From assembly GCA_964016885.1 (NCBI GenBank), contig OZ024747.1:80042001-80106000 (forward strand): DNA of 64,000 nucleotides, read 5' to 3'. The first letter of the stretch is position 1. Every line of letters begins with the position of its first letter. A model generated the notes under the pieces. It ran no database searches. It worked only from the letters and a program-made list of their open reading frames with translations, and had not been told where the DNA came from. Position numbers and translations under genes: made by a program. Source of the DNA: Eledone cirrhosa (Eukaryota). Below are positions 1 through 56,491 of the stretch, one piece after another.

Positions 1-3000
1 ATACTCAGAGTCGGCCCATTCACTCGGGCCATTCTTGCTTCTCTCACCCATCTTTCAACAAAATGCTGGGAAGAGAGCACTTCCCTCTCTACTCTGATTT
101 TCCTTTTCAAATGAAATTTGAAAAAGTCAATCAGAGCATCACCGAAGAGGTAAGTGCTCGTCTTCAGCCCTTTCAAACGTGTCCACCATACTATCTCTTT
201 CGCCATGGCCACCAGACAGATAAAAACTGCCTGCCCTTCCCGGCTAAAGGAGGAGGGCGGGGCAATCCTCACGATGGACTCAGATGATAGATGGATCCGT
301 CCTAAACGCGACAGCAGGTGTTCGACATAAACCCACAAGTCAGCAATTTTCGGACACTGGACGAGTGCGTGCAGGACGGTTTCGTCGCCCTGCGCGCATC
401 TCGGACATGCCCGGCTGACGGCACCTCCATGCCTGTAGAGTTTATCCCGAACTGGCAAGGCTCCTCGGTAGCACTGCCAGGCCAGAGATTTCTGGAAGTT
501 GTCCATAGGCCCCGGCCCGAAAGTTCTTCCGAAGAGATTGGCTAGTTGATTTTCGTCGACGCCTAGAGTTTCCCCAAGTACGTCGTCGCTCTTCCCCTCC
601 ACTAATCCTCTATAGAACGCCGAGGTGGAGTTTCCACCGATCACATTGCCCGATTGGTCGAGGGCTGTGAGCGCCTGAAGACATTCCAGTCTCCAGGCGC
701 TCCCTCTCGGTCTTCGCTTGACCCAGGACTGCAGCTCCGTCAAGGAAACGAGCTGGGGAAAAACGCGTCTAGCAAACGGCGACCACACCTGATCACCGTC
801 GAGGAAGAGGTGGAGATGTCGTAGCCTGAGCGCGTGCCTGCGCATCATCAGCCACGGCATGCCCAGCCCTCCACGTAGCGGGTGTTGACAACAGATGGAC
901 CGCCTGACCATCGGAGCACGTCCCTTCCACAAAAAGCGAAAGAGCAAACGCTCCAGCGCAGTCAGGCGAGGCTTAGGACAAGGTACGACGGTTAGGCGGT
1001 AGCAGATGACAGACGCGATGTACGCGTTAGCCACCTCCGCTCGACCTTTCAGGGATAGCTTCCTCTCCGCCCATTTCTGGGTGAGAGAAGCCACCCTGCT
1101 CGTCACCTCGTCCCAGTTTTTGTCCGTCTGGAGGTCCGGACCGAACCAGACCCCTAGCAATTTAACCGGTCCGTCCGTCCAGCGCCCGACGACGCTGTTG
1201 GACGGCATGGACCTGCCTCTCCAGGTGCCGAGCTGCAGGCCCACTGACTTTTCCTGGTTGATCATTGCTCCTGTCACCGCTTCGTATTCTCTTAGTGTAG
1301 TGCCGATCGCCTCGATGTGTTTGGCGTTCGACACCACTACGGTGACATCGTCCGCATATGCTGACACGGATCTTCCGCATCCTAGTTCGCGCGGGACTCC
1401 CCTCAACGTCTCCAGTTTGTGCAGTAATGGCTCGAGAGTCAATACGTACAAGAGGGACGAGAGGGGACATCCTTGGCGGACCGAGCGCATGATGTTGAAC
1501 GGTTCCGACAGGTGACCGTTCACTCTCACCACAGAGCAGATGTCGCTGTGCATGGCAGCGATCCAGCCTCTGAAGACGGGCCCAAAGCCAGCCGCCTTCA
1601 GGACGGCCGCTAGGTAACGATGGTCGACCCTATCGAAAGCTTTCGACTGATCTAAATTGATCAAGGACCCACCCGTGCCAGGTTCCCTAGCTACCCTCTC
1701 TATGATGTATCGCATGAGGTGGAGGTTGTCGTGGATGGATCTGTCGGGAATGGCGCATGTCTGCGCCTCTCCCACCAGACCACCAACGACAAGCGCCAAC
1801 CTCTTTGCTAGCACCTTGGCCAAAATCTTGAACTCTGTGTTTAGCAGAGTTATGGGCCGGAAATTGTCTATGTTATCCCCCTTGTTCGGATCCTTTCTCA
1901 GCAGTGCCACCGCTCCTCGGCTCACAGAACTGGGAATTCTCCCATTCTGTTGCCAGTTGCAGTAGACGTCCGCCAAGAGGCCTCCGAACAAGTCTGGCAT
2001 CTGTACGTAAAGTTCATAGGGCAGACCATCCAAACCAGGCGATTTACCCCTTGTGCAGCCAGTCATTGCCTCCCTTACTTCAGCGGCTGTTATCGGCTTT
2101 TCGCAACACTTCGCCTCAGTGGCCGAGAGCCGCGGCAGTCCGTCGAGGTAGACACTAAAGTCCATCCCTCTACCCGGCCCACCGCTGCCCCCGAACAGCT
2201 GAGCGAAGTGTCGCTGAAAAGCTTCACACATTTGCCCGGGATCGAGTAGCATGCGCCCGTCGTGGTCCACCAAAGACCGGATCGTGGCTTTGTTGCCACG
2301 ACGCGCCTCCGCCACTCGGGCCCATTGAACGGCTTTCGTCCCCTCGTGTCTGAGAGCACGCACCCTAGCTCTGACAACGCAGCCTTCGTGCTTTGCATTG
2401 AAGAATTGGTCAAGGGCCAATTTCGCCGCAAGCACGTCGGTCGCAATGCCTTTGCTAAGCGCCTCGTCTAATTTTCTAACTAGTTCTCCCTCTGCTCTAT
2501 TTTTCTCTATTGCTAAAGCCTTACTAAACCTAATCGATTCTATTCTAATCGCTCTTTTCAGAGCAAACCACCACTTGTTGTTGACGATGGCCCCCGTCAA
2601 CGCCCGCTTAACTAGTTCGCTAATCCGGTCTCTGTAGGCCTTGCGCGCTGGTAAGGACGCGTTTAGCTTCCAGTAGCCGGGTCCTCGTCTATGAAGCCTA
2701 TCTAAGTCAAGCACACAGGTCACGAATTTGTGGTCCGTGTAGCTGACTATCTTGAATTGTGGACAGCCTATGCTAGACCTATCTATTTCCCTACAAAATA
2801 CTCTATCTAGATATGATCTGGATGACCCTATGCGGTTTGTCCAAGTCCACATTGGCACATTCGGGAAATCCAATCGGTACCTGTCAGACAGTTCAAAACG
2901 CCTGAGCAGGTTGGTGAGGCTCTTGCACCCTCCACCCCTATCCGCTAATCCCACACAGTCCCAGCGTGCATCTAAGATCCCGTTCCAGTCGCCCACTAAC

Positions 3001-39077: not shown

Positions 39078-40111
39078 AAGCACCATGGGTCCAGTGGAAG
39101 ACACTCAACCACCTGAGAACAGGGATGGGGCGATCAAAAGCTGCTATGGCCAGATGGGGCTACAAGACCGGCCCAACCATCTGTGAATGCGGAGAGGAGG
39201 ACCACACGATGCAGCACTGCCTTGTTTGCCCTCTACTACCCAACCATCTGTGAATGCGGAGAGGAGGACCACACGATGCAGCACTGCCTTGTTTGCCCTC
39301 TACTACCCAACCATCTGTGAATGCGGAGAGGAGGACCACACGATGCAGCACTGCCTTGTTTGCCCTCTACTACCCAACCATCTGTGAATGCGGAGAGGAG
39401 GACCACACGATGCAGCACTGCCTTGTTTGCCCTCTACTACCCAACCATCTGTGAATGCAGAGAGGAGGACCACACGATGCAGCACTGCCTTGTTTGCCCT
39501 CTACTACCCAACCATCTGTGAATGCGGAGAGGAGGACCACACGATGCAGCACTGCCTTGTTTGCCCTCTACTACCCAACCATCTGTGAATGCGGAGAGGA
39601 GGACCACACGATGCAGCACTGCCTTGTTTGCCCTCTACTACCCAACCATCTGTGAATGCAGAGAGGAGGACCACACGATGCAGCACTGCCTTGTTTGCCC
39701 TCTACTACCCAACCATCTGTGAATGCAGAGAGGAGGACCACACGATGCAGCACTGCCTTGTTTGCCCTCTACTACCCAACCATCTGTGAATGCGGAGAGG
39801 AGGACCACACGATGCAGCACTGCCTTGTTTGCCCTCTACTACCCAACCATCTGTGAATGCGGAGAGGAGGACCACACGATGCAGCACTGCCTTGTTTGCC
39901 CTCTACTACCCAACCAGTGCAGCTTAAAAGATCTCGCAGAATTTAATAATAATGCAAAGGACTGTGTAAAGAAATGGGAAACTGTCATATAACCAGATGC
40001 TTCGAAGATTCGAGAAGAAGAAGAAGAAGAAGAAGAAGAAGAAGAAGAAGAAGAAGAAGAAGAAGAAGAAGAAGAAGAAGAAGAAGAAGAAGAAGAAGAA
40101 GAAGAAGAAGA
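39078..40111 (+). mobile_element. 5'-truncated RTEX/RTE-like LINE 3' end with (AAG)n tail
   Basis: WKTLNHLRTGMGRSKAAMARWGY..CECG..TMQHCLVCP..CSLKDL..W; stop at 39992, ~20-nt 3'UTR, then (AAG)~33. Confidence 0.75.
39172..39916 (+). repeat. 67-bp minisatellite, 11 copies plus 8 bp
   Basis: Unit CCCAACCATCTGTGAATGCRGAGAGGAGGACCACACGATGCAGCACTGCCTTGTTTGCCCTCTACTA. Confidence 0.97.
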
Positions 40112-40789: not shown

Positions 40790-42550
40790 TTTTGGAATGT
40801 TTTACATATTTTACTGTTCCATTAATGGATTATACTTGTAATTTCCTAACTAGTTGTGTTCTTTCTGTTCTTGTGAAGCCTAGCTTCTTAAGATTTGTAT
40901 TGAGGCAGTTACTAACATATCCCAGTGCCCCACTAATCACAGTCATAAATCTGAAGGTGTAATCAGGGTGGAGTATCTGCAGATCTCTCATCAGTTCTGC
41001 ATAAATATTCTCCTTTTCGCTAATCTTTGATATTATATTGACATCTGCTGGGCAGCTAATTTCCACTACTGTGCATGTTTTCTTCTCCTTGTCTCATATC
41101 ATAATATCTGGTCTGTTATTCCTGCATTTTATTGCGCTTTTTACTGGAACATTCCACCAGTACTCTTTCATATTATGTAGATGGATGACTTCCACATTGC
41201 TGTAGCTTTTAATGTGTTTATTATCGGGGTATCTTTTTTACGAACTGCATTGTACAGTGTTTAGGACAGGCACAGCAAACACATTGTGAGCCACTGTTTT
41301 GTTTCGCGCAGAGAGCTCCGATGACCAGATCTTTCTTAATCGGGTGTAGTATTCCCTGGTTACGCGTTCTTTATTACAGATACCATTATAGGATATGTTC
41401 TCATCTATCCCCAGGTATCTGTAGCAGTCCTCATCAGATATCGGTGAAACAGTTAGGCCATTGATGACAATGTTGCTAGATTGGGTTGTTGTTTTTCCCC
41501 TCTTTACAGTCATGTATGAGCATTTATCTTGGCCAAACTCCATTCCTATATCCTTTGAGAACGTTGTAACCAGGTCAAGATTTTTCTTCATCCCATCCAT
41601 GATCTTGGCATAGAGTTTCAGATCGTTCACAAAGAAATTATGGGTTAGGTTCGTATTTCTGTCCTCCTGTGAGCCAATGATGTATCCCTCACATTTCTTG
41701 AGCAGAAAGGACAAGGGGTTTAATGACAAGATGAATAATATCACAGAGAGACTGTCCCCCTGAAATATACCCCTGCAATATTTTATTTTATCAGTGAAAA
41801 TAGAGTCCTCCCTCTCTGCCTTTAACCTTAGGATAGTAGCCCAAGAAGAAGACAGCCTCTCTATGGCTCTGACAATAATGTCTGGGACTTTAGCAAGTTG
41901 GAGGGCCTCTATCATCCAAGAGTGGGGAACAGAATCGAAAGCTTTCTTGTAGTCCAGCCAGACTGTAGTCATATTCCTACTAAGTTGTCGCACCTCCGAC
42001 ATCGCAGTTTTGTTGATTAGGAGTTGTTCAGCACATCCCCAAACCCCTTTCTTTCCAGTTGCTTGTTCATCTGTGATGATGTTATTATTTTCACAGTGAT
42101 CTTGGAGGAATAGGTTCAGACAGACTGTATACATCTTATACATCAGGTTCTGGCATGCAATGGATCGGTAGTTTTTTGCCAAGTGGGTGTCTTTGTTCTT
42201 GGGGACCAGTAATGTTTGTGCTAATGTCAACCATTCTGGTATAAGTGTATCTCCCTTAAGAACTTGTTGGTAGAGGTCAGTAAGATACCTCCGATAGAAT
42301 ATCAGTTTTTTGTACCAGTAGCCGACAATCATGTCTTTTCCTGGTGTTTTCTTATCTTGGAGTTTCCCTATCACAGTCTCAAGGGTAGCCTCACTTATTT
42401 CGTATGTTTTTGTTGTAGTGTAGGAGCAATAGTTCTTTCGGATTTCTCTTAGCCACACTGCATCTTGGTTGAAATTCTTCTTTTCACCCCATATTTTGCT
42501 CCAAAAGGAATCTGTCTTTCTGGGATGGGCCTCAGTGACACTTATTATTT
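40790..42550 (-). pseudogene. Internally deleted R4-like RLE non-LTR element (RT in ORF 41238..42458, RLE at ~40830-41200)
   Basis: DYKKAFDSVPH, RGIFQGDSLS, catalytic motif mutated to FVND, YRYLG; downstream NRPDIMI*D..VEISCP..GALG. Confidence 0.88.
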
Positions 42551-43472: not shown

Positions 43473-43892
43473 ATAATTATACACATATAACGATATTCAT
43501 GTGAGTTTAACATTAAAAAAACAACACCAACGAAACAACAAAAATCTGTTAAGTATTAATTGTAAATTGAAATATCTAAACTGAAATACACATATTTTAC
43601 CTAGCGGGTAATATCAAAAGATAAAAATAATTTATTTCATAAAAATATGGACAAGCAATATTTTTCTTTCTTTGTAGATTATTCGAAGATTTACCATATT
43701 ATTCTTTTTCCTTGCTGATTCTTAATGGTTTCAAATGAATTATGTTTCATATTCAAATAAAATAGATGGTCTTATTTGAAACGTTACAAATTTACAGATA
43801 CTGCCTGGTATACATTTACTTTACCTGTATACATATGCACACAGTTACACACACACACACACATATATATGTAATATTTGTTATAATTATAT

Positions 43893-43926
<34 letters not shown>

Positions 43927-43931
<5 letters not shown>

Positions 43932-44572
43932 AAATTGAGGTTGGTAATGGCACATGGAATATATAAGAGACAGAATACTTTTTTGTGAAAAAACATAATT
44001 TTATAAGGTAAGGAAATAATAAAGGGTATAAAAAATGACCGGTTTCGATGGGTCTGCAAAAGCCATCTTTTCAAATGTTGATTAATATTAAGAAAAATTA
44101 ATAATACGAAGAGTTAAAATTTGAGACTTGAAAATTCAAGTATAAAATATATATATATACCACCAAGTATAAAATATATATATATACCACCCTCCCACCC
44201 CCTCACTGACCAGCAGCTGGCTATTGCTAAATCTGACCTTTATAAAATAACCCACACCCCAAATAACTTCTCATTCACTACCAGAAAGGGACACAGCAGT
44301 CAACCTGTTGTTGCTACCTAGATGAAAACTGCTATGAAATCCCACAATGAATTTTATACTTGAATTTTCAAGTCTCAAATTTTAACTCTTCGTATTATTA
44401 ATTTTTCTTAATATTAATCAACATTTGAAAAGATGGCTTTTGCAGACCCATCGAAACCGGTCATTTTTTATACCCTTTATTATTTCCTTACCTTATAAAA
44501 TTATGTTTTTTCACAAAAAAGTATTCTGTCTCTTATATATTCCATGTGCCATTACCAACCTCAATTTTCTCT
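43927..44572. repeat. Inverted repeat with 222-bp arms and 202-bp spacer (Penelope pLTR-like)
   Basis: 43927-44148 is the reverse complement of 44351-44572; arm carries a degenerate hammerhead-like UUGAAAA-GAUGG..CCAUC-GAAACCGGUC; (AT)n close by on both sides. Confidence 0.88.
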
Positions 44573-44603
44573 ATAACCTTCGTTTTGTGTAGAAAATTAC
44601 ACT

Positions 44604-44676
<73 letters not shown>

Positions 44677-45793: not shown

Positions 45794-45824
<31 letters not shown>

Positions 45825-45831
<7 letters not shown>

Positions 45832-48496
45832 TAATTTAATATATCAACTAACATAAGCGCACAGATGCACGCCCATGCCAGCAAATACACAGGTTATGTC
45901 ATAGTACCTAGGTGGTTCAATGCAGGAGAATGCAGAACAATAATATAAAGGACGTAAAATAAAAAAATATTTTTTTAAAAAAATTTAAAAAAAATTTTTT
46001 TCTTACTTAAATTTTCACTCCAACTAATTAGTTTCTGCAATGGGATAAAGACAGTTACGTAATCCAACTGTCGAGAATTCATTGCGTCATCAGGAAGTCT
46101 ATTCTCAGTTAAGTCTCCAGGCAATGCGCGGACACTGGCGGCTCATATAAAAATAATAATAATTCGGTAGATCGAACAGCTTGCGAGGACTGGATTCTAT
46201 GTACCGAAATTCTCACTGCTTCAAGTCAAATGGCCGATTCTAAAGAATCAATCACGTGACACAGAGGCTAGTTAGAAGGAATGGGATGGTAAGATGACTG
46301 ACGCCTACTAACACCCCAAAAAAAATTTTTTTAGAAGTGGTTTTGACAAGTTTGCTCGACAAATCAGTGATTTGGAGATAAATATAGATAATTTAATATA
46401 TCAACTAACATAAGCGCACAGATGCACGCCCATGCCAGCAAATACACAGGTTATGTCATAGTACCTAGGTGGTTCAATGCAGGAGAATGCAGAACAATAA
46501 TATAAAGGACGTAAAATAAAAAAATATTTTTTTAAAAAAATTTAAAAAAAATTTTTTTCTTACTTAAATTTTCACTCCAACTAATTAGTTTCTGCAATGG
46601 GATAAAGACAGTTACGTAATCCAACTGTCGAGAATTCATTGCGTCATCAGGAAGTCTATTCTCAGTTAAGTCTCCAGGCAATGCGCGGACACTGGCGGCT
46701 CATATAAAAATAATAATAATTCGGTAGATCGAACAGCTTGCGAGGACTGGATTCTATGTACCGAAATTCTCACTGCTTCAAGTCAAATGGCCGATTCTAA
46801 AGAATCAATCACGTGACACAGAGGCTAGTTAGAAGGAATGGGATGGTAAGATGACTGACGCCTACTAACACCCCAAAAAAAATTTTTTTAGAAGTGGTTT
46901 TGACAAGTTTGCTCGACAAATCAGTGATTTGGAGATAAATATAGATAATTTAATATATCAACTAACATAAGCGCACAGATGCACGCCCATGCCAGCAAAT
47001 ACACAGGTTATGTCATAGTACCTAGGTGGTTCAATGCAGGAGAATGCAGAACAATAATATAAAGGACGTAAAATAAAAAAATATTTTTTTAAAAAAATTT
47101 AAAAAAAAATTTTTTCTTACTTAAATTTTCACTCCAACTAATTAGTTTCTGCAATGGGATAAAGACAGTTACGTAATCCAACTGTCGAGAATTCATTGCG
47201 TCATCAGGAAGTCTATTCTCAGTTAAGTCTCCAGGCAATGCGCGGACACTGGCGGCTCATATAAAAATAATAATAATTCGGTAGATCGAACAGCTTGCGA
47301 GGACTGGATTCTATGTACCGAAATTCTCACTGCTTCAAGTCAAATGGCCGATTCTAAAGAATCAATCACGTGACACAGAGGCTAGTTAGAAGGAATGGGA
47401 TGGTAAGATGACTGACGCCTACTAACACCCCAAAAAAAATTTTTTTAGAAGTGGTTTTGACAAGTTTGCTCGACAAATCAGTGATTTGGAGATAAATATA
47501 GATAATTTAATATATCAACTAACATAAGCGCACAGATGCACGCCCATGCCAGCAAATACACAGGTTATGTCATAGTACCTAGGTGTCAATGCAGGAGAAT
47601 GCAGAACAATAATATAAAGGACGTAAAATAAAAAAATATTTTTTTAAAAAAATTAAAAAAAAATTTTTTTCTTACTTAAATTTTCACTCCAACTAATTAG
47701 TTTCTGCAATGGGATAAAGACAGTTACGTAATCCAACTGTCGAGAATTCATTGCGTCATCAGGAAGTCTATTCTCAGTTAAGTCTCCAGGTAATGCGCGG
47801 ACACTGGCGGCTCATATAAAAATAATAATAATTCGGTAGATCGAACAGCTTGCGAGGACTGGATTCTATGTACCGAAATTCTCACTGCTTCAAGTCAAAT
47901 GGCCGATTCTAAAGAATCAATCACGTGACACAGAGGCTAGTTAGAAGGAATGGGATGGTAAGATGACTGACGCCTACTAACACCCCAAAAAAAATTTTTT
48001 TAGAAGTGGTTTTGACAAGTTTGCTCGACAAATCAGTGATTTGGAGATAAATATAGATAATTTAATATATCAACTAACATAAGCGCACAGATGCACGCCC
48101 ATGCCAGCAAATACACAGGTTATGTCATAGTACCTAGGTGGTTCAATGCAGGAGAATGCAGAACAATAATATAAAGGACGTAAAATAAAAAAATATTTTT
48201 TTAAAAAAATTTAAAAAAAATTTTTTTCTTACTTAAATTTTCACTCCAACTAATTAGTTTCTGCAATGGGATAAAGACAGTTACGTAATCCAACTGTCGA
48301 GAATTCATTGCGTCATCAGGAAGTCTATTCTCAGTTAAGTCTCCAGGCAATGCGCGGACACTGGCGGCTCATATAAAAATAATAATAATTCGGTAGATCG
48401 AACAGCTTGCGAGGACTGGATTCTATGTACCGAAATTCTCACTGCTTCAAGTCAAATGGCCGATTCTAAAGAATCAATCACGTGACACAGAGGCTA
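45825..48496 (-). repeat. 557-bp tandem array, left arm (~4.8 units), hammerhead on the minus strand
   Basis: Unit starts at 45830, 46387, 46944, 47501 and 48056; begins at a (TA)n tract. Confidence 0.97.
46017..46098 (-). ncRNA. Type I hammerhead ribozyme in the 557-bp unit (also 46574-46655, 47131-47212, 47686-47767, 48243-48324)
   Basis: Reverse complement of the motif at 48992-49073. Confidence 0.8.
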
Positions 48497-51400
48497 AGAA
48501 ACTAATTAGTTGGAGTGAAAATTTAAGTAAGAAAAAAATTTTTTTTAAATTTTTTTAAAAAAATATTTTTTTATTTTACGTCCTTTATATTATTGTTCTG
48601 CATTCTCCTGCATTGAACCACCTAGGTACTATGACATAACCTGTGTATTTGCTGGCATGGGCGTGCATCTGTGCGCTTATGTTAGTTGATATATTAAATT
48701 ATCTATATTTATCTCCAAATCACTGATTTGTCGAGCAAACTTGTCAAAACCACTTCTAAAAAAATTTTTTTTGGGGTGTTAGTAGGCGTCAGTCATCTTA
48801 CCATCCCATTCCTTCTAACTAGCCTCTGTGTCACGTGATTGATTCTTTAGAATCGGCCATTTGACTTGAAGCAGTGAGAATTTCGGTACATAGAATCCAG
48901 TCCTCGCAAGCTGTTCGATCTACCGAATTATTATTATTTTTATATGAGCCGCCAGTGTCCGCGCATTGCCTGGAGACTTAACTGAGAATAGACTTCCTGA
49001 TGACGCAATGAATTCTCGACAGTTGGATTACGTAACTGTCTTTATCCCATTGCAGAAACTAATTAGTTGGAGTGAAAATTTAAGTAAGAAAAAAATTTTT
49101 TTTAAATTTTTTTAAAAAAATATTTTTTTATTTTACGTCCTTTATATTATTGTTCTGCATTCTCCTGCATTGAACCACCTAGGTACTATGACATAACCTG
49201 TGTATTTGCTGGCATGGGCGTGCATCTGTGCGCTTATGTTAGTTGATATATTAAATTATCTATATTTATCTCCAAATCACTGATTTGTCGAGCAAACTTG
49301 TCAAAACCACTTCTAAAAAAAATTTTTTTTGGGGTGTTAGTAGGCGTCAGTCATCTTACCATCCCATTCCTTCTAACTAGCCTCTGTGTCACGTGATTGA
49401 TTCTTTAGAATCGGCCATTTGACTTGAAGCAGTGAGAATTTCGGTACATAGAATCCAGTCCTCGCAAGCTGTTCGATCTACCGAATTATTATTATTTTTA
49501 TATGAGCCGCCAGTGTCCGCGCATTGCCTGGAGACTTAACTGAGAATAGACTTCCTGATGACGCAATGAATTCTCGACAGTTGGATTACGTAACTGTCTT
49601 TATCCCATTGCAGAAACTAATTAGTTGGAGTGAAAATTTAAGTAAGAAAAAATTTTTTTTTAAATTTTTTTAAAAAAATATTTTTTTATTTTACGTCCTT
49701 TATATTATTGTTCTGCATTCTCCTGCATTGAACCACCTAGGTACTATGACATAACCTGTGTATTTGCTGGCATGGGCGTGCATCTGTGCGCTTATGTTAG
49801 TTGATATATTAAATTATCTATATTTATCTCCAAATCACTGATTTGTCGAGCAAACTTGTCAAAACCACTTCTAAAAAAATTTTTTTTGGGGTGTTAGTAG
49901 GCGTCAGTCATCTTACCATCCCATTCCTTCTAACTAGCCTCTGTGTCACGTGATTGATTCTTTAGAATCGGCCATTTGACTTGAAGCAGTGAGAATTTCG
50001 GTACATAGAATCCAGTCCTCGCAAGCTGTTCGATCTACCGAATTATTATTATTTTTATATGAGCCGCCAGTGTCCGCGCATTGCCTGGAGACTTAACTGA
50101 GAATAGACTTCCTGATGACGCAATGAATTCTCGACAGTTGGATTACGTAACTGTCTTTATCCCATTGCAGAAACTAATTAGTTGGAGTGAAAATTTAAGT
50201 AAGAAAAAAATTTTTTTTAAATTTTTTTAAAAAAATATTTTTTTATTTTACGTCCTTTATATTATTGTTCTGCATTCTCCTGCATTGAACCACCTAGGTA
50301 CTATGACATAACCTGTGTATTTGCTGGCATGGGCGTGCATCTGTGCGCTTATGTTAGTTGATATATTAAATTATCTATATTTATCTCCAAATCACTGATT
50401 TGTCGAGCAAACTTGTCAAAACCACTTCTAAAAAAATTTTTTTTGGGGTGTTAGTAGGCGTCAGTCATCTTACCATCCCATTCCTTCTAACTAGCCTCTG
50501 TGTCACGTGATTGATTCTTTAGAATCGGCCATTTGACTTGAAGCAGTGAGAATTTCGGTACATAGAATCCAGTCCTCGCAAGCTGTTCGATCTACCGAAT
50601 TATTATTATTTTTATATGAGCCGCCAGTGTCCGCGCATTGCCTGGAGACTTAACTGAGAATAGACTTCCTGATGACGCAATGAATTCTCGACAGTTGGAT
50701 TACGTAACTGTCTTTATCCCATTGCAGAAACTAATTAGTTGGAGTGAAAATTTAAGTAAGAAAAAAATTTTTTTTAAATTTTTTTAAAAAAATATTTTTT
50801 TATTTTACGTCCTTTATATTATTGTTCTGCATTCTCCTGCATTGAACCACCTAGGTACTATGACATAACCTGTGTATTTGCTGGCATGGGCGTGCATCTG
50901 TGCGCTTATGTTAGTTGATATATTAAATTATCTATATTTATCTCCAAATCACTGATTTGTCGAGCAAACTTGTCAAAACCACTTCTAAAAAAATTTTTTT
51001 TGGGGTGTTAGTAGGCGTCAGTCATCTTACCATCCCATTCCTTCTAACTAGCCTCTGTGTCACGTGATTGATTCTTTAGAATCGGCCATTTGACTTGAAG
51101 CAGTGAGAATTTCGGTACATAGAATCCAGTCCTCGCAAGCTGTTCGATCTACCGAATTATTATTATTTTTATATGAGCCGCCAGTGTCCGCGCATTACCT
51201 GGAGACTTAACTGAGAATAGACTTCCTGATGACGCAATGAATTCTCGACAGTTGGATTACGTAACTGTCTTTATCCCATTGCAGAAACTAATTAGTTGGA
51301 GTGAAAATTTAAGTAAGAAAAAAATTTTTTTTTAATTTTTTTAAAAAAATATTTTTTTATTTTACGTCCTTTATATTATTGTTCTGCATTCTCCTGCATT

Positions 51401-53604
51401 GAACCACCTAGGTACTATGACATAACCTGTGTATTTGCTGGCATGGGCGTGCATCTGTGCGCTTATGTTAGTTGATATATTAAATTATCTATATTTATCT
51501 CCAAATCACTGATTTGTCGAGCAAACTTGTCAAAACCACTTCTAAAAAAATTTTTTTTGGGGTGTTAGTAGGCGTCAGTCATCTTACCATCCCATTCCTT
51601 CTAACTAGCCTCTGTGTCACGTGATTGATTCTTTAGAATCGGCCATTTGACTTGAAGCAGTGAGAATTTCGGTACATAGAATCCAGTCCTCGCAAGCTGT
51701 TCGATCTACCGAATTATTATTATTTTTATATGAGCCGCCAGTGTCCGCGCATTGCCTGGAGACTTAACTGAGAATAGACTTCCTGATGACGCAATGAATT
51801 CTCGACAGTTGGATTACGTAACTGTCTTTATCCCATTGCAGAAACTAATTAGTTGGAGTGAAAATTTAAGTAAGAAAAAAATTTTTTTTAAATTTTTTTA
51901 AAAAAATATTTTTTTATTTTACGTCCTTTATATTATTGTTCTGCATTCTCCTGCATTGAACCACCTAGGTACTATGACATAACCTGTGTATTTGCTGGCA
52001 TGGGCGTGCATCTGTGCGCTTATGTTAGTTGATATATTAAATTATCTATATTTATCTCCAAATCACTGATTTGTCGAGCAAACTTGTCAAAACCACTTCT
52101 AAAAAAATTTTTTTTGGGGTGTTAGTAGGCGTCAGTCATCTTACCATCCCATTCCTTCTAACTAGCCTCTGTGTCACGTGATTGATTCTTTAGAATCGGC
52201 CATTTGACTTGAAGCAGTGAGAATTTCGGTACATAGAATCCAGTCCTCGCAAGCTGTTCGATCTACCGAATTATTATTATTTTTATATGAGCCGCCAGTG
52301 TCCGCGCATTACCTGGAGACTTAACTGAGAATAGACTTCCTGATGACGCAATGAATTCTCGACAGTTGGATTACGTAACTGTCTTTATCCCATTGCAGAA
52401 ACTAATTAGTTGGAGTGAAAATTTAAGTAAGAAAAAAATTTTTTTTTAATTTTTTTAAAAAAATATTTTTTTATTTTACGTCCTTTATATTATTGTTCTG
52501 CATTCTCCTGCATTGAACCACCTAGGTACTATGACATAACCTGTGTATTTGCTGGCATGGGCGTGCATCTGTGCGCTTATGTTAGTTGATATATTAAATT
52601 ATCTATATTTATCTCCAAATCACTGATTTGTCGAGCAAACTTGTCAAAACCACTTCTAAAAAAATTTTTTTTGGGGTGTTAGTAGGCGTCAGTCATCTTA
52701 CCATCCCATTCCTTCTAACTAGCCTCTGTGTCACGTGATTGATTCTTTAGAATCGGCCATTTGACTTGAAGCAGTGAGAATTTCGGTACATAGAATCCAG
52801 TCCTCGCAAGCTGTTCGATCTACCGAATTATTATTATTTTTATATGAGCCGCCAGTGTCCGCGCATTGCCTGGAGACTTAACTGAGAATAGACTTCCTGA
52901 TGACGCAATGAATTCTCGACAGTTGGATTACGTAACTGTCTTTATCCCATTGCAGAAACTAATTAGTTGGAGTGAAAATTTAAGTAAGAAAAAAATTTTT
53001 TTTAAATTTTTTTAAAAAAATATTTTTTTATTTTACGTCCTTTATATTATTGTTCTGCATTCTCCTGCATTGAACCACCTAGGTACTATGACATAACCTG
53101 TGTATTTGCTGGCATGGGCGTGCATCTGTGCGCTTATGTTAGTTGATATATTAAATTATCTATATTTATCTCCAAATCACTGATTTGTCGAGCAAACTTG
53201 TCAAAACCACTTCTAAAAAAATTTTTTTTGGGGTGTTAGTAGGCGTCAGTCATCTTACCATCCCATTCCTTCTAACTAGCCTCTGTGTCACGTGATTGAT
53301 TCTTTAGAATCGGCCATTTGACTTGAAGCAGTGAGAATTTCGGTACATAGAATCCAGTCCTCGCAAGCTGTTCGATCTACCGAATTATTATTATTTTTAT
53401 ATGAGCCGCCAGTGTCCGCGCATTGCCTGGAGACTTAACTGAGAATAGACTTCCTGATGACGCAATGAATTCTCGACAGTTGGATTACGTAACTGTCTTT
53501 ATCCCATTGCAGAAACTAATTAGTTGGAGTGAAAATTTAAGTAAGAAAAAAATTTTTTTTAAATTTTTTTAAAAAAATATTTTTTTATTTTACGTCCTTT
53601 ATAT
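48497..53604 (+). repeat. 557-bp tandem array, right arm (9 units plus ~94 bp), inverted relative to the left arm
   Basis: AGAAACTAATTAG recurs at 48497, 49054, 49612, 50169, 50726, 51283, 51840, 52397, 52954 and 53511; ends in (TA)n. Confidence 0.97.
48992..49073 (+). ncRNA. Type I hammerhead ribozyme in the 557-bp unit (8 further copies every ~557 bp up to 53449-53530)
   Basis: ACUUC-CUGAUGA-c GCAAUG..GACAGUU loop AACUGUC..CAUUGC a-GAAAC UAAUUA GUU^GGAGU; helix I ACUUC/GGAGU; palindromic AACUAAUUAGUU in helix III. Confidence 0.82.
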
Positions 53605-53690
53605 ATATATATATATATATATAGTAAAAATGTGAAGACTAAAATCAAAAGAGGGCTCGATATGGATAAATATATATCAAATATATAAGA

Positions 53691-53754
<64 letters not shown>

Positions 53755-53896
53755 ATATATATACGCAAAAGGGATATTTAATTTGTTGGTAATTCAACAA
53801 ATATATATGTTTATAACTGATTCGAAGCACTCGACAGTTTTTCTGGAGTATATCAATAATATTAATAAATGGAAACTTTATTTATAGATCCATATT

Positions 53897-53957
53897 TATT
53901 CTATTATATATATTTCAAGGGTACCAAAACTTTGGTACGCTCTCATCAGATAAAATA
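53897..53957 (-). ncRNA. Type I hammerhead ribozyme motif
   Basis: UAUUUUAU-CUGAUGA-GAGcGUACCAA..UUGGUACcCUU-GAAA U AUAU AUA^AUAGAAUA; lies in an insert between (AT)n tracts. Confidence 0.75.
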
Positions 53958-54070
53958 CAAGGAAATCCAGGAAAAACTTGAACTGTTAAGATCTCCTTCC
54001 CGCATATCTCAATATATATAGGAGAAAGTATGACCCCGACGGCAGAGCTCAAGCCGTTTTGACGGCTATT

Positions 54071-55537: not shown

Positions 55538-55826
55538 CGATCTTATAGTGATCTCGAAAGATACAAATAAATGTTCGTAAAAAGACTCCAGTTGCATTTT
55601 CGATTTCTTTTTCTTATACTTTCACTCGTGGAGGGCATTTCGGACATCTCGTTTATTTTCATTAAAAAAAAACCTCATTTTCTTTTATATATATATATAC
55701 ACAAAACGCCAGCACCAACAGTTTTGCAAGAGATGTCAACATGAAAGGACCTGTTATTTTTATCTAAAGACATTTTTTCTATTTCCAACCCGCTCGTTCC
55801 CACAATCTATCTTATTTCTCATTCTT

Positions 55827-56198: not shown

Positions 56199-56270
<72 letters not shown>

Positions 56271-56491
56271 GTGAGGTTTTTTTACAAAATGAAAAATAAC
56301 CGAGGGGTCCTACACGAGTGAAAGTATAAGGAAAAAAAGATGAAATCGAAAATGCAACTGGAGTCTTATTTAAAAAAAAATATATATATATTTATTTGGT
56401 TCCTTTACCGGTTTCGCAGTTCTTCTGCTTTTCAAAAGTAGAGTTGAGATGGAGGGTCTGTGGTTTTTCTCACATCATATATATATATAAA

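Follow-up and report, generated by a model that had tools for sequence, protein, structure and literature searches.

Structure of the array

The window considered here is the whole 64,000-nucleotide stretch of Eledone cirrhosa contig OZ024747.1 that was analysed. Between its positions 45,825 and 53,604 it harbours an array of 557-bp units with 14 type I hammerhead motifs, nine on the plus strand and five on the minus strand. The CTGATGA cores are located at 48997, 49555, 50112, 50669, 51226, 51783, 52340, 52897 and 53454 on the plus strand and at 46093, 46650, 47207, 47762 and 48319 on the minus strand, with a spacing of 555-558 bp, and each of the 14 is followed by GAAACTAATTAGTT. A tenth plus-strand GAAACTAATTAGTT, at 48498, lacks a core because the right arm of the array begins within a ribozyme. 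An alignment of the 13 full units shows differences at 6 columns, and their GC content is low (35%). Their longest stop-to-stop frame is 55 aa and their longest ATG ORF 35 aa, and no ORF for a reverse transcriptase (RT) with GIY-YIG is found in the array, also when it is read as a circle. A preliminary description, made from the sequence alone, had reported the same motif counts and near-identical units with no ORF of 60 aa or more, and the core listing bears it out. The apparent satellite of that description, however, constitutes a single insertion in (TA)n with two diverging arms rather than two arrays, and the 7.8-kb insertion is recent. Tandem Repeats Finder did not call the array, since its period limit is 500. 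The features are as follows, all unit positions being numbered on the reference unit.

45802..45829, no strand: left (TA)n target tract
45825..45829, minus: L priming site, whose TATAT microhomology grades into the left (TA)n
45825..48496, minus: left arm, 5'-truncated at unit position 309, with four full units and five hammerhead cores; its 3' terminus is the 'long' (L) site, unit position ~193-197
48496/48497, no strand: 5'-to-5' junction of the diverging arms (inversion point)
48497..53604, plus: right arm, 5'-truncated at unit position 543, with nine full units, nine hammerhead cores and a core-less 3' half at its start; its 3' terminus is the 'short' (S) site, unit position 75-79
53600..53604, plus: S priming site, whose TATAT microhomology grades into the right (TA)n
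53600..53624, no strand: right (TA)n target tract
49627..50183, plus: reference unit, the predicted cleavage-to-cleavage monomer of 557 nt (fold z = -3.9)
49706..49823, plus: 'tail' of ~120 nt between the S and L 3' sites, with two hairpins

Both tail hairpins are kept in three subfamilies, and the tail is a putative RT-binding region.

The hammerhead and its fold

A representative motif is organised as follows.

48992..49073, plus: type I hammerhead, core 48997-49003, predicted cut after 49068
48992-48996/49069-49073, plus: helix I, 5 bp
49004..49054, plus: long helix II of 51 nt, with a conserved C.A apposition, a 6-bp basal stem, a 7x7 internal loop and an 8-bp upper stem
49057..49068, plus: helix III, a 12-nt perfect palindrome

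The motif combines the CUGAnGA, GAAA and UH core elements with helices I-III, as expected of a type I hammerhead, and the cut site predicted earlier agrees with the motif positions. Helix I of this copy contains a U.G wobble at 48995, which is C-G in most other copies. In an alignment of helices I-III from three subfamilies, 92.4% of 802 cells are paired and 7 of the 22 pairs show double-sided changes, a figure that amounts to roughly 5-7 independent changes given 37 related rows. MAFFT displaced subfamily C by one column, a shift that partly persists, and the pairs of this subfamily are therefore undercounted. Covariation between subfamilies is seen in both the basal and the upper stem of helix II and, judging from these sequence comparisons, the ribozyme fold is consequently under selection. 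Of 271 copies, 257 retain an intact catalytic core, and the internal loops in the extended helix I and in helix II are conserved. The scan with Rfam models suggested in the preliminary description recovered no hammerhead family, either at gathering score or at E<=10, so that the identification rests on the core motif and on covariation.

The C-A mismatch noticed earlier at the first pair of helix II recurs in 270 of the 271 copies with a readable core. In the same 270 copies the pair G10.1-C11.1 does not directly flank the core, a single additional nucleotide intervening on either side (C on one, A on the other); PLE (Penelope-like element) hammerheads usually have the 5' one. The 10.1-11.1 pair is normally conserved, with U.U reported as the best-tolerated mispair (PMC3088659), and the C.A apposition may slow the ribozyme. 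The palindromic nature of helix III also stands: 3 bp are predicted for the monomer and a 12-bp duplex (-10.8 kcal/mol) for the dimer. In the best predicted fold of the monomer the core pairs with helix III (-18.7 vs -16.2 kcal/mol).

A dispersed family with two fixed 3' ends

The preliminary description proposed a genome search for dispersed arrays, and the unit is not confined to this locus. Exact copies of the ribozyme word of this array number 2,714 genome-wide and those of a family-wide ribozyme word 9,026; exact element/(TA)n end junctions amount to 570 for L and 305 for S, against 0 for a reversed-pattern control. The loci are dispersed, have a GC content below 50% and range from dimers to multimers. 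A TA repeat follows 167 of 175 arm 3' ends, and target-site duplications are unreadable inside (TA)n. Throughout the family the 3' ends fall at two fixed sites ~120 nt apart, so defining a one-ended, optional tail, and the 5' ends are truncated at random; three other TATAT/ATATA words of the unit are not used as 3' ends. Family insertions also show the PLE-type combination of 5' truncation with an inverted 5'-truncated arm.

These features define a recently spreading, protein-free family with thousands of ribozyme-shaped copies, which is a new family of the known non-LTR retrozymes. In this regard, the suggestion of an undescribed family holds for the family itself but not for its class, and its length is ordinary: 557 bp exceeds the ~170-400 nt of expressed examples (Cervera & de la Pena 2020, PMC7229834), yet lies inside the published 51-972 bp range of retrozyme consensus lengths. 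Metazoan non-LTR retrozymes (PMC7229834; 10.64898/2026.07.22.740005) resemble the family in having non-coding tandem units of low GC that each contain a type I hammerhead, arrays dispersed over the genome, PLEs alongside them in that genome and a palindromic helix III suited to dimers, whereas here helix II is 51 nt long with an internal loop and C.A at its base. The insertion anatomy favours the earlier reading of a retrozyme mobilised in trans by a PLE RT as the best one, and the array is very probably a PLE-mobilised hammerhead element.

Two-armed insertions and their template

One contig has 32 end clusters, of which 31 consist of an L and an S end that diverge; diverging L/L or S/S pairs are absent from these clusters and a tandem L,L occurs once. 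Among 113 insertion clusters, 66 are S+L, none S/S or L/L, 40 single-armed, 5 cut and 2 untyped. All 66 fully typed two-armed young insertions therefore carry one L and one S end, and 43 of them were not selected as pairs. In older subfamilies, S+L accounts for 45 of 57 two-armed insertions and S/S or L/L for 5. This rule is not described in the available parts of PMC7229834 or 10.64898/2026.07.22.740005.

A 5' inversion by twin priming is also a feature of L1, and intact-looking APE-RT LINE ORFs lie within the same window, so that a SINE-like passenger of an APE-type LINE protein, inverted by classical twin priming, may be considered. We regard this as scarcely probable: a poly(A) or added tail is absent, priming takes place internally at two fixed positions, the start of the direct arm is not beside the second priming site, the 5' ends spread over the unit, and the S/L rule is also found in autonomous PLEs of this genome.

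The arm pairs are identical within 34 of 49 loci, compared with 18% of 2,296 pairs between loci, and rare variants are common to both arms in 10 of 49 loci vs 5 of 2,350 between-locus pairs. Both arms, as far as their sequence variants tell, come from the same template haplotype. Fold-back synthesis was rejected as a general source of the second arm, the S arm being the longer one in 25 of 67 cases and arm lengths being uncorrelated; near-perfect palindromes are found at 9 of 67 junctions.

Arm lengths are exponential (mean 827, KS p = 0.38, n = 175), extending from sub-unit size to 9 units with no ceiling. Expansion of short retrotransposed pieces by unequal crossover, giving a satellite born from a PLE terminal repeat, would instead have to begin from a seed longer than one unit and would produce a separate long class; moreover, units differ by 0.1% within an insertion and by 0.9% between insertions. 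Local amplification after PLE insertion is discussed by Li et al. 2026 (10.64898/2026.07.22.740005), and variant 457A, present in 3 of the 14 units of this array, in both arms and almost nowhere else, indicates local exchange. We nevertheless hold such DNA-level expansion to be quite improbable as the origin of the arrays.

Of 108 variant sites covered by at least 3 units, 58 are changed in all units, 43 in a single one and 7 in a subset, which we read as a monomer bottleneck; for rare variants, 13 are fixed in all units and 6 occur in subsets. The insertion record is as expected if two reverse transcriptions had run on a single endless template, which was probably a monomer circle. The 457A pattern is impossible from a single monomer circle, and hence needs later conversion or a multimer template.

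Proposed mechanism

These observations allow us to propose a model in which the arrays would be transcribed as multimers, and adjacent hammerheads would pair via the 12-nt palindrome and then cleave, the lone monomer being predicted to fold inactively. A host ligase would close the monomer, and the PLE protein would bind the structured ~120-nt tail and nick both strands of a (TA)n tract. One DNA 3' end would prime at L and the other at S by TATAT pairing; each RT would circle the template and drop off at random, and the two 5'-truncated cDNAs would be joined by 0-5 nt of microhomology or, if one were lost, leave a single arm. We lean somewhat towards this whole chain, that is, mobilisation in trans by a PLE via a self-cleaved, circularised 557-nt RNA. 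Counted against it are the C.A apposition, the inactive monomer fold, the 457A pattern, the 6 rare variants in subsets, the 5 older S/S or L/L insertions and the lack, among the PLE loci searched, of an autonomous PLE sharing the unit DNA. So are in vitro cleavage in 1 of 9 predicted Xenopus retrozyme dimers (Li et al. 2026; 10.64898/2026.07.22.740005), and insertion of the anole PLE, which did not need cleavage (PMC11167929).

In the anole PLE, the RNA is used without processing and the hammerhead depends on protein (PMC11167929), which lends weight to a two-site PLE insertion from an uncleaved linear multimer, with a slow or protein-gated hammerhead and parent arrays homogenised by gene conversion. 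The spread of 457A, the predicted monomer fold and the C.A apposition are in favour of a linear template, and no pile-up at the cleavage site is seen among 175 5' ends (3 within 1 nt of the cut, 0.9 expected), which fits uncleaved RNA equally with a circle. We consider it rather unlikely, given the 58 to 7 ratio of fixed to partial variants and the locus-rare variants that fill 5/5, 6/6 and 7/7 units, for conversion should leave more intermediates. In addition, short loci predominate (arm median 611 bp) while arms of as many as 9 units occur and show no length ceiling, and the core is so widely intact.

Beyond this family, we tentatively suggest, with less confidence than in the chain above, that Penelope-type integration is in general twin-primed rolling-circle reverse transcription. 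A single circular RNA would be gripped at its structured tail by a protein dimer, and two RTs, each primed by one of the nicked target strands, would copy it simultaneously from the two sides of that tail. One step would thus account for pseudo-LTRs, for 5' inversions and for the tail being one-ended; if so, this family preserves the process in hundreds of young insertions.

A candidate Penelope-like helper

The genome contains a young RT+GIY-YIG Penelope-like family that targets (TA)n, as the retrozyme does. Among its 64 best copies, at 98-100% identity, 51 lack a stop; its S end lies 82 nt after its own hammerhead-like cut, and 6 of 7 resolved two-armed copies are S+L. It shares no DNA with the unit and is therefore only a candidate partner. 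No unit homology was found in 58 PLE-centred stretches, and 40 further loci contained no PLE ORF that continued into the unit; the genome holds 10,596 GIY-YIG candidates, of which 150 were scored. A PDB search with the PLE protein gave no match. Unit homologues beside PLE ORFs at two loci (L069 and L048), first taken for the autonomous parent, were ruled out as separate older-subfamily insertions, cut off by (TA)n or wrongly placed. At a single locus (L122), a PLE 3' end and subfamily B sequence are joined directly, 5' to 5', as a chimera; PLE 3' fragments are present in 73 of 225 retrozyme loci, so the chimera may be due to chance.

Relation to other Penelope-like elements

A one-ended tail and 5' inversion count among the hallmarks of PLEs (PMC8557442). 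With EN+ PLEs of the Neptune-like type, which bear a C-terminal GIY-YIG (PMC8557442; PMC4209133), the family has in common 5' truncation with an inverted 5'-truncated arm, a tail at one end only and a (TA)n target. Their hammerheads also agree in the long helix II, 5-bp helix I, palindromic helix III, the extra nucleotide after A9 and the conserved G-C next to it. Here, by contrast, there is no ORF, the tail is ~120 nt rather than 30-40 bp, and an additional unpaired A precedes G12.

In vitro, the Poseidon element of the green anole likewise starts reverse transcription at two internal sites, which lie downstream of its hammerhead and delimit the tail; both target strands are extended and the target is AT-rich (Frangieh 2024, PMC11167929). 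Its start sites show no homology to the target and no difference between strands, whereas in the present family each start site bears TATAT microhomology and the two arms almost always differ in the site they use. MRC1 and similar non-autonomous elements of Chlamys are also PLE passengers with multicopy head-to-tail insertions; their 3' end generally resembles an autonomous family, and their clade is without canonical hammerheads (PMC8557442). Unlike in Xenopus, where there are 21 PLE matches, no pLTR homologue was found here.

The origin of tandem, inverted, tailed PLE insertions has been stated as unresolved (PMC8557442), and circle-templated retrozyme insertion is a proposal in the literature. 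The value of the present family lies in its mechanistic record rather than in its element class: being young, small and numerous, it yields countable rules, namely one arm per start site, a single haplotype for both arms and memoryless truncation, and it is well suited to testing the way in which Penelope elements integrate. The predicted 557-nt RNA, together with an RT family of this genome that is young and looks intact, offers a ready reconstitution system. The family also contributes a hammerhead variant, flanked by C.A and with a long bipartite helix II, of which ~9,000 copies escape Rfam.

As a side observation, three sequencing runs from other organisms (X22-X24) contain near-identical pieces of the unit at a depth of 2-5; we read these as traces and claim no spread between species. 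A further run, X19, may come from the source sample, and no RNA data set appeared among the runs listed as containing the sequence. Of the 18 runs with a small share of matches, four were examined, and two of these matched 49294-49330 only.

A single two-armed insertion of a widespread family

The window (C7:80042001-80106000 within the 3.0-Gb assembly) holds 14 complete hammerhead motifs, 5 on the minus and 9 on the plus strand, as the preliminary description had it; its nearly identical 557-bp units and its non-coding track are likewise recovered, with a spacing of 555-558 bp, 6 variable columns in 13 full units and a longest frame of at most 55 aa. Because the two tracks, or arms, diverge from a single junction (48496/48497) and both outer ends pass into (TA)n, the array is regarded as one 7.8-kb insertion. 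Unit positions are numbered from the first base 3' of the predicted cut (window 49627 = position 1). A 37-bp stretch of the unit (window 49294-49330) matches many short contigs at less than 90% (two possible RNA runs, other organisms), and is perhaps a shared repeat motif.

Confinement of the unit to this locus, which would have told against the preliminary description, does not hold: the genome contains 2,714 exact ribozyme words of the window subfamily and 9,026 exact family-wide words. Older relatives include subfamily B (unit of 537 bp, 75% identical) and subfamily C (524-530 bp, 69% identical), and more intermediates are present. The 5' end varies from arm to arm; the 3' end is in every arm of one of two kinds, short (S, unit position 75-79) or long (L, ~193-197), at both of which TATAT merges with (TA)n. 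Exact element/(TA)n junctions number 570 for L and 305 for S, and a TA repeat lies directly beyond 167 of 175 arm ends. Three further TA-like words in the unit show no use as 3' ends, so microhomology alone is insufficient to choose the S and L sites. The ~120-nt tail between these sites holds two hairpins kept in three subfamilies (28 pairs, 2 changed on both sides).

Two-armed insertions mostly pair one S with one L end

On contig C1, the complete set of 91 L and 48 S junctions falls into 32 clusters, 31 of them diverging L+S pairs and one a tandem L,L. The 113 mapped loci comprise 66 S+L insertions, 21 with an S arm alone, 19 with an L arm alone, 5 that run past the locus boundary and 2 untyped, with no S/S or L/L insertion among them. 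Of the 66 S+L loci, 23 had been picked because their pairing was known beforehand; the remaining 43 came to light through one end or the ribozyme (p about 2e-13 under a crude 50:50 expectation). In 88 loci, most of them from older subfamilies, there are 57 two-armed insertions, of which 45 are S+L, 3 S/S, 2 L/L and 7 unclear. A one-ended tail and an inverted 5'-truncated copy are given as hallmarks of Penelope-like elements (PLEs; PMC8557442), and in an anole PLE reverse transcription starts at two internal sites bounding the tail, with both strands extended (PMC11167929).

Template of the insertion

One haplotype gave both arms: arm pairs are identical at 34 of 49 comparable loci, against 18% of 2,296 between-locus pairs; rare variants are common to both arms at 10 of 49 loci, but to just 5 of 2,350 between-locus pairs. 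A fold-back origin of the second arm was rejected, S being longer than L in 25/67 and arm lengths uncorrelated. The overlap at the arm-arm junction is mostly 0-5 nt. Arm lengths are exponential (mean 827 bp, KS p = 0.38, n = 175) in a fit that leaves out cut loci and thereby trims the long tail. Since only 3/175 5' ends lie at the predicted cut site, cleaved linear monomers were discarded as the template. Foreign pieces captured between arms were also observed, of 413 bp (L100:675-1089) and 231 bp (L119:2349-2581).

With homopolymer stretches masked, 58 of the variants covered by at least three units occur in all units of an array, 43 in a single one and 7 in a subset (13, 37 and 6 for rare variants only). 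Variants fixed throughout an array point to a bottleneck of one unit, with multimers synthesised afterwards, a scheme put forward for retrozyme circles (PMC7229834). The window array is itself a counter-example, as 457A, a variant at unit position 457 with two more copies in the genome, occurs in 3 of its 14 units, spread over both arms, a pattern that calls for either subsequent conversion or a template of several units. A linear multimer RNA in place of the monomer circle thus stays viable as template, although fixation at 58 sites against subsets at 7 weighs against it and toward the one-unit circle.

The hammerhead fold

An Rfam search gave no hammerhead match in the window array, and the fold was therefore tested independently. 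In 37 chosen family copies, 92.4% of 802 cells are paired, compared with 31-46% in slid controls, and 7 of 22 pairs changed on both sides; as the 37 rows are related, this covariation amounts to only a few independent changes. In helix II, however, both strands of the basal stem have changed together in no fewer than five versions; 257/271 copies retain an intact core, and the cut-site word is kept in 263/272. Judged by contig depth, most copies have C-G where helix I of the window has U.G (83,532/93,730).

In PLE hammerheads as described in PMC4209133, helix II is long and helix I short, helix III is palindromic and one additional nucleotide follows A9, with G10.1-C11.1; the family fits this description and has an added A before G12. 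Self-cleavage would be expected of such a motif. The best predicted monomer fold, however, pairs the core with helix III at 2.5 kcal/mol below the active form, which would count against fast cleavage; the palindrome duplex in the dimer is predicted at -10.8 kcal/mol.

Class and novelty

In those of its features that could be tested the family is a metazoan non-LTR retrozyme, and it behaves like one, bearing out the candidate reading of the preliminary description. In Li et al. (10.64898/2026.07.22.740005), retrozyme units span 51-972 bp and one of nine dimers was cleaved. PMC3088659 and PMC6155905 also entered the comparison. A real element forming a new family is well supported; the suggestion of an undescribed family stands for the family and not for the class, which, like the circle model, was known before. 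A literature search, with subscription papers and older PLE reviews mostly outside it, found no account of the family or of the strict S+L rule; either may already be on record, including in Repbase or Dfam. The insertion statistics make the open PLE insertion mechanism testable.

A candidate helper PLE

A PF01541 profile returned 10,596 candidates in the genome, of which 150 were scored, and 20 long-frame loci represent about seven PLE families, several ending in (TA)n. One family combines RT and GIY-YIG domains and carries, ahead of the nuclease, the cysteine motif that marks Neptune/Nematis, of which it is a putative member. Identity among its 64 best copies is 98-100%, and 51 of these have no stop. 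The family carries a hammerhead-like motif of its own, with the S end lying 82 nt past the cut (79 in the retrozyme unit) and a tail of 61 nt. Seven of its two-armed copies could be resolved, 6 of them as S+L; two loci did not resolve. No DNA common to this PLE and the unit was found, nor a PLE frame continuous with the unit in 40 additional ribozyme loci, so that the autonomous PLE sharing the unit, proposed earlier as a check, was not recovered. The family is only a candidate for the helper acting in trans, and other PLE families are also possible.

Window 55579-55683 and 56265-56476 are 3' fragments of this candidate helper family. At L122:660-2217, a diverging chimera has a PLE 3' end and a subfamily B copy abutting 5'-to-5', the two overlapping by 2 nt. 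The autonomous PLE families (L061:~2900-2960, minus strand, and relatives) have a hammerhead-like core with a compensatory U3/A8 for C3/G8, a replacement that hammerheads tolerate.

Other elements in the window and genome

Other elements of the window
1-31800: LINE tandem array, about five 6.5-kb head-to-tail copies, >99% identical, (AAT)n between copies
39172-39916: 67-bp minisatellite, 11 copies, 99% matches
41238-42332, minus strand: 364-aa RT fragment (RVT_1)
43847-44649: 3' fragment of another PLE family (type seen at locus L080), two-armed and diverging, ending in (TA)n
53780-53980, minus strand: distinct short repeat bearing a hammerhead-like motif (core at 53949) whose helix III is a TA palindrome

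Each LINE copy encodes a 698-aa ORF (no Pfam match) and a 1139-aa APE-RT-zf ORF; the array is a young tandem array, possibly (AAT)n-targeted. Copies of the 53780-53980 repeat also occur at L071, L084 and within the L135 junction. Further, unrelated hammerhead repeats in the genome include a tandem repeat of 459 bp whose helix II measures 50 nt (L062:6990-7950), a four-copy array of ~500 bp (L071:8000-9600) and others (e.g., L080:~1040), many of which have U.U at the helix II base.
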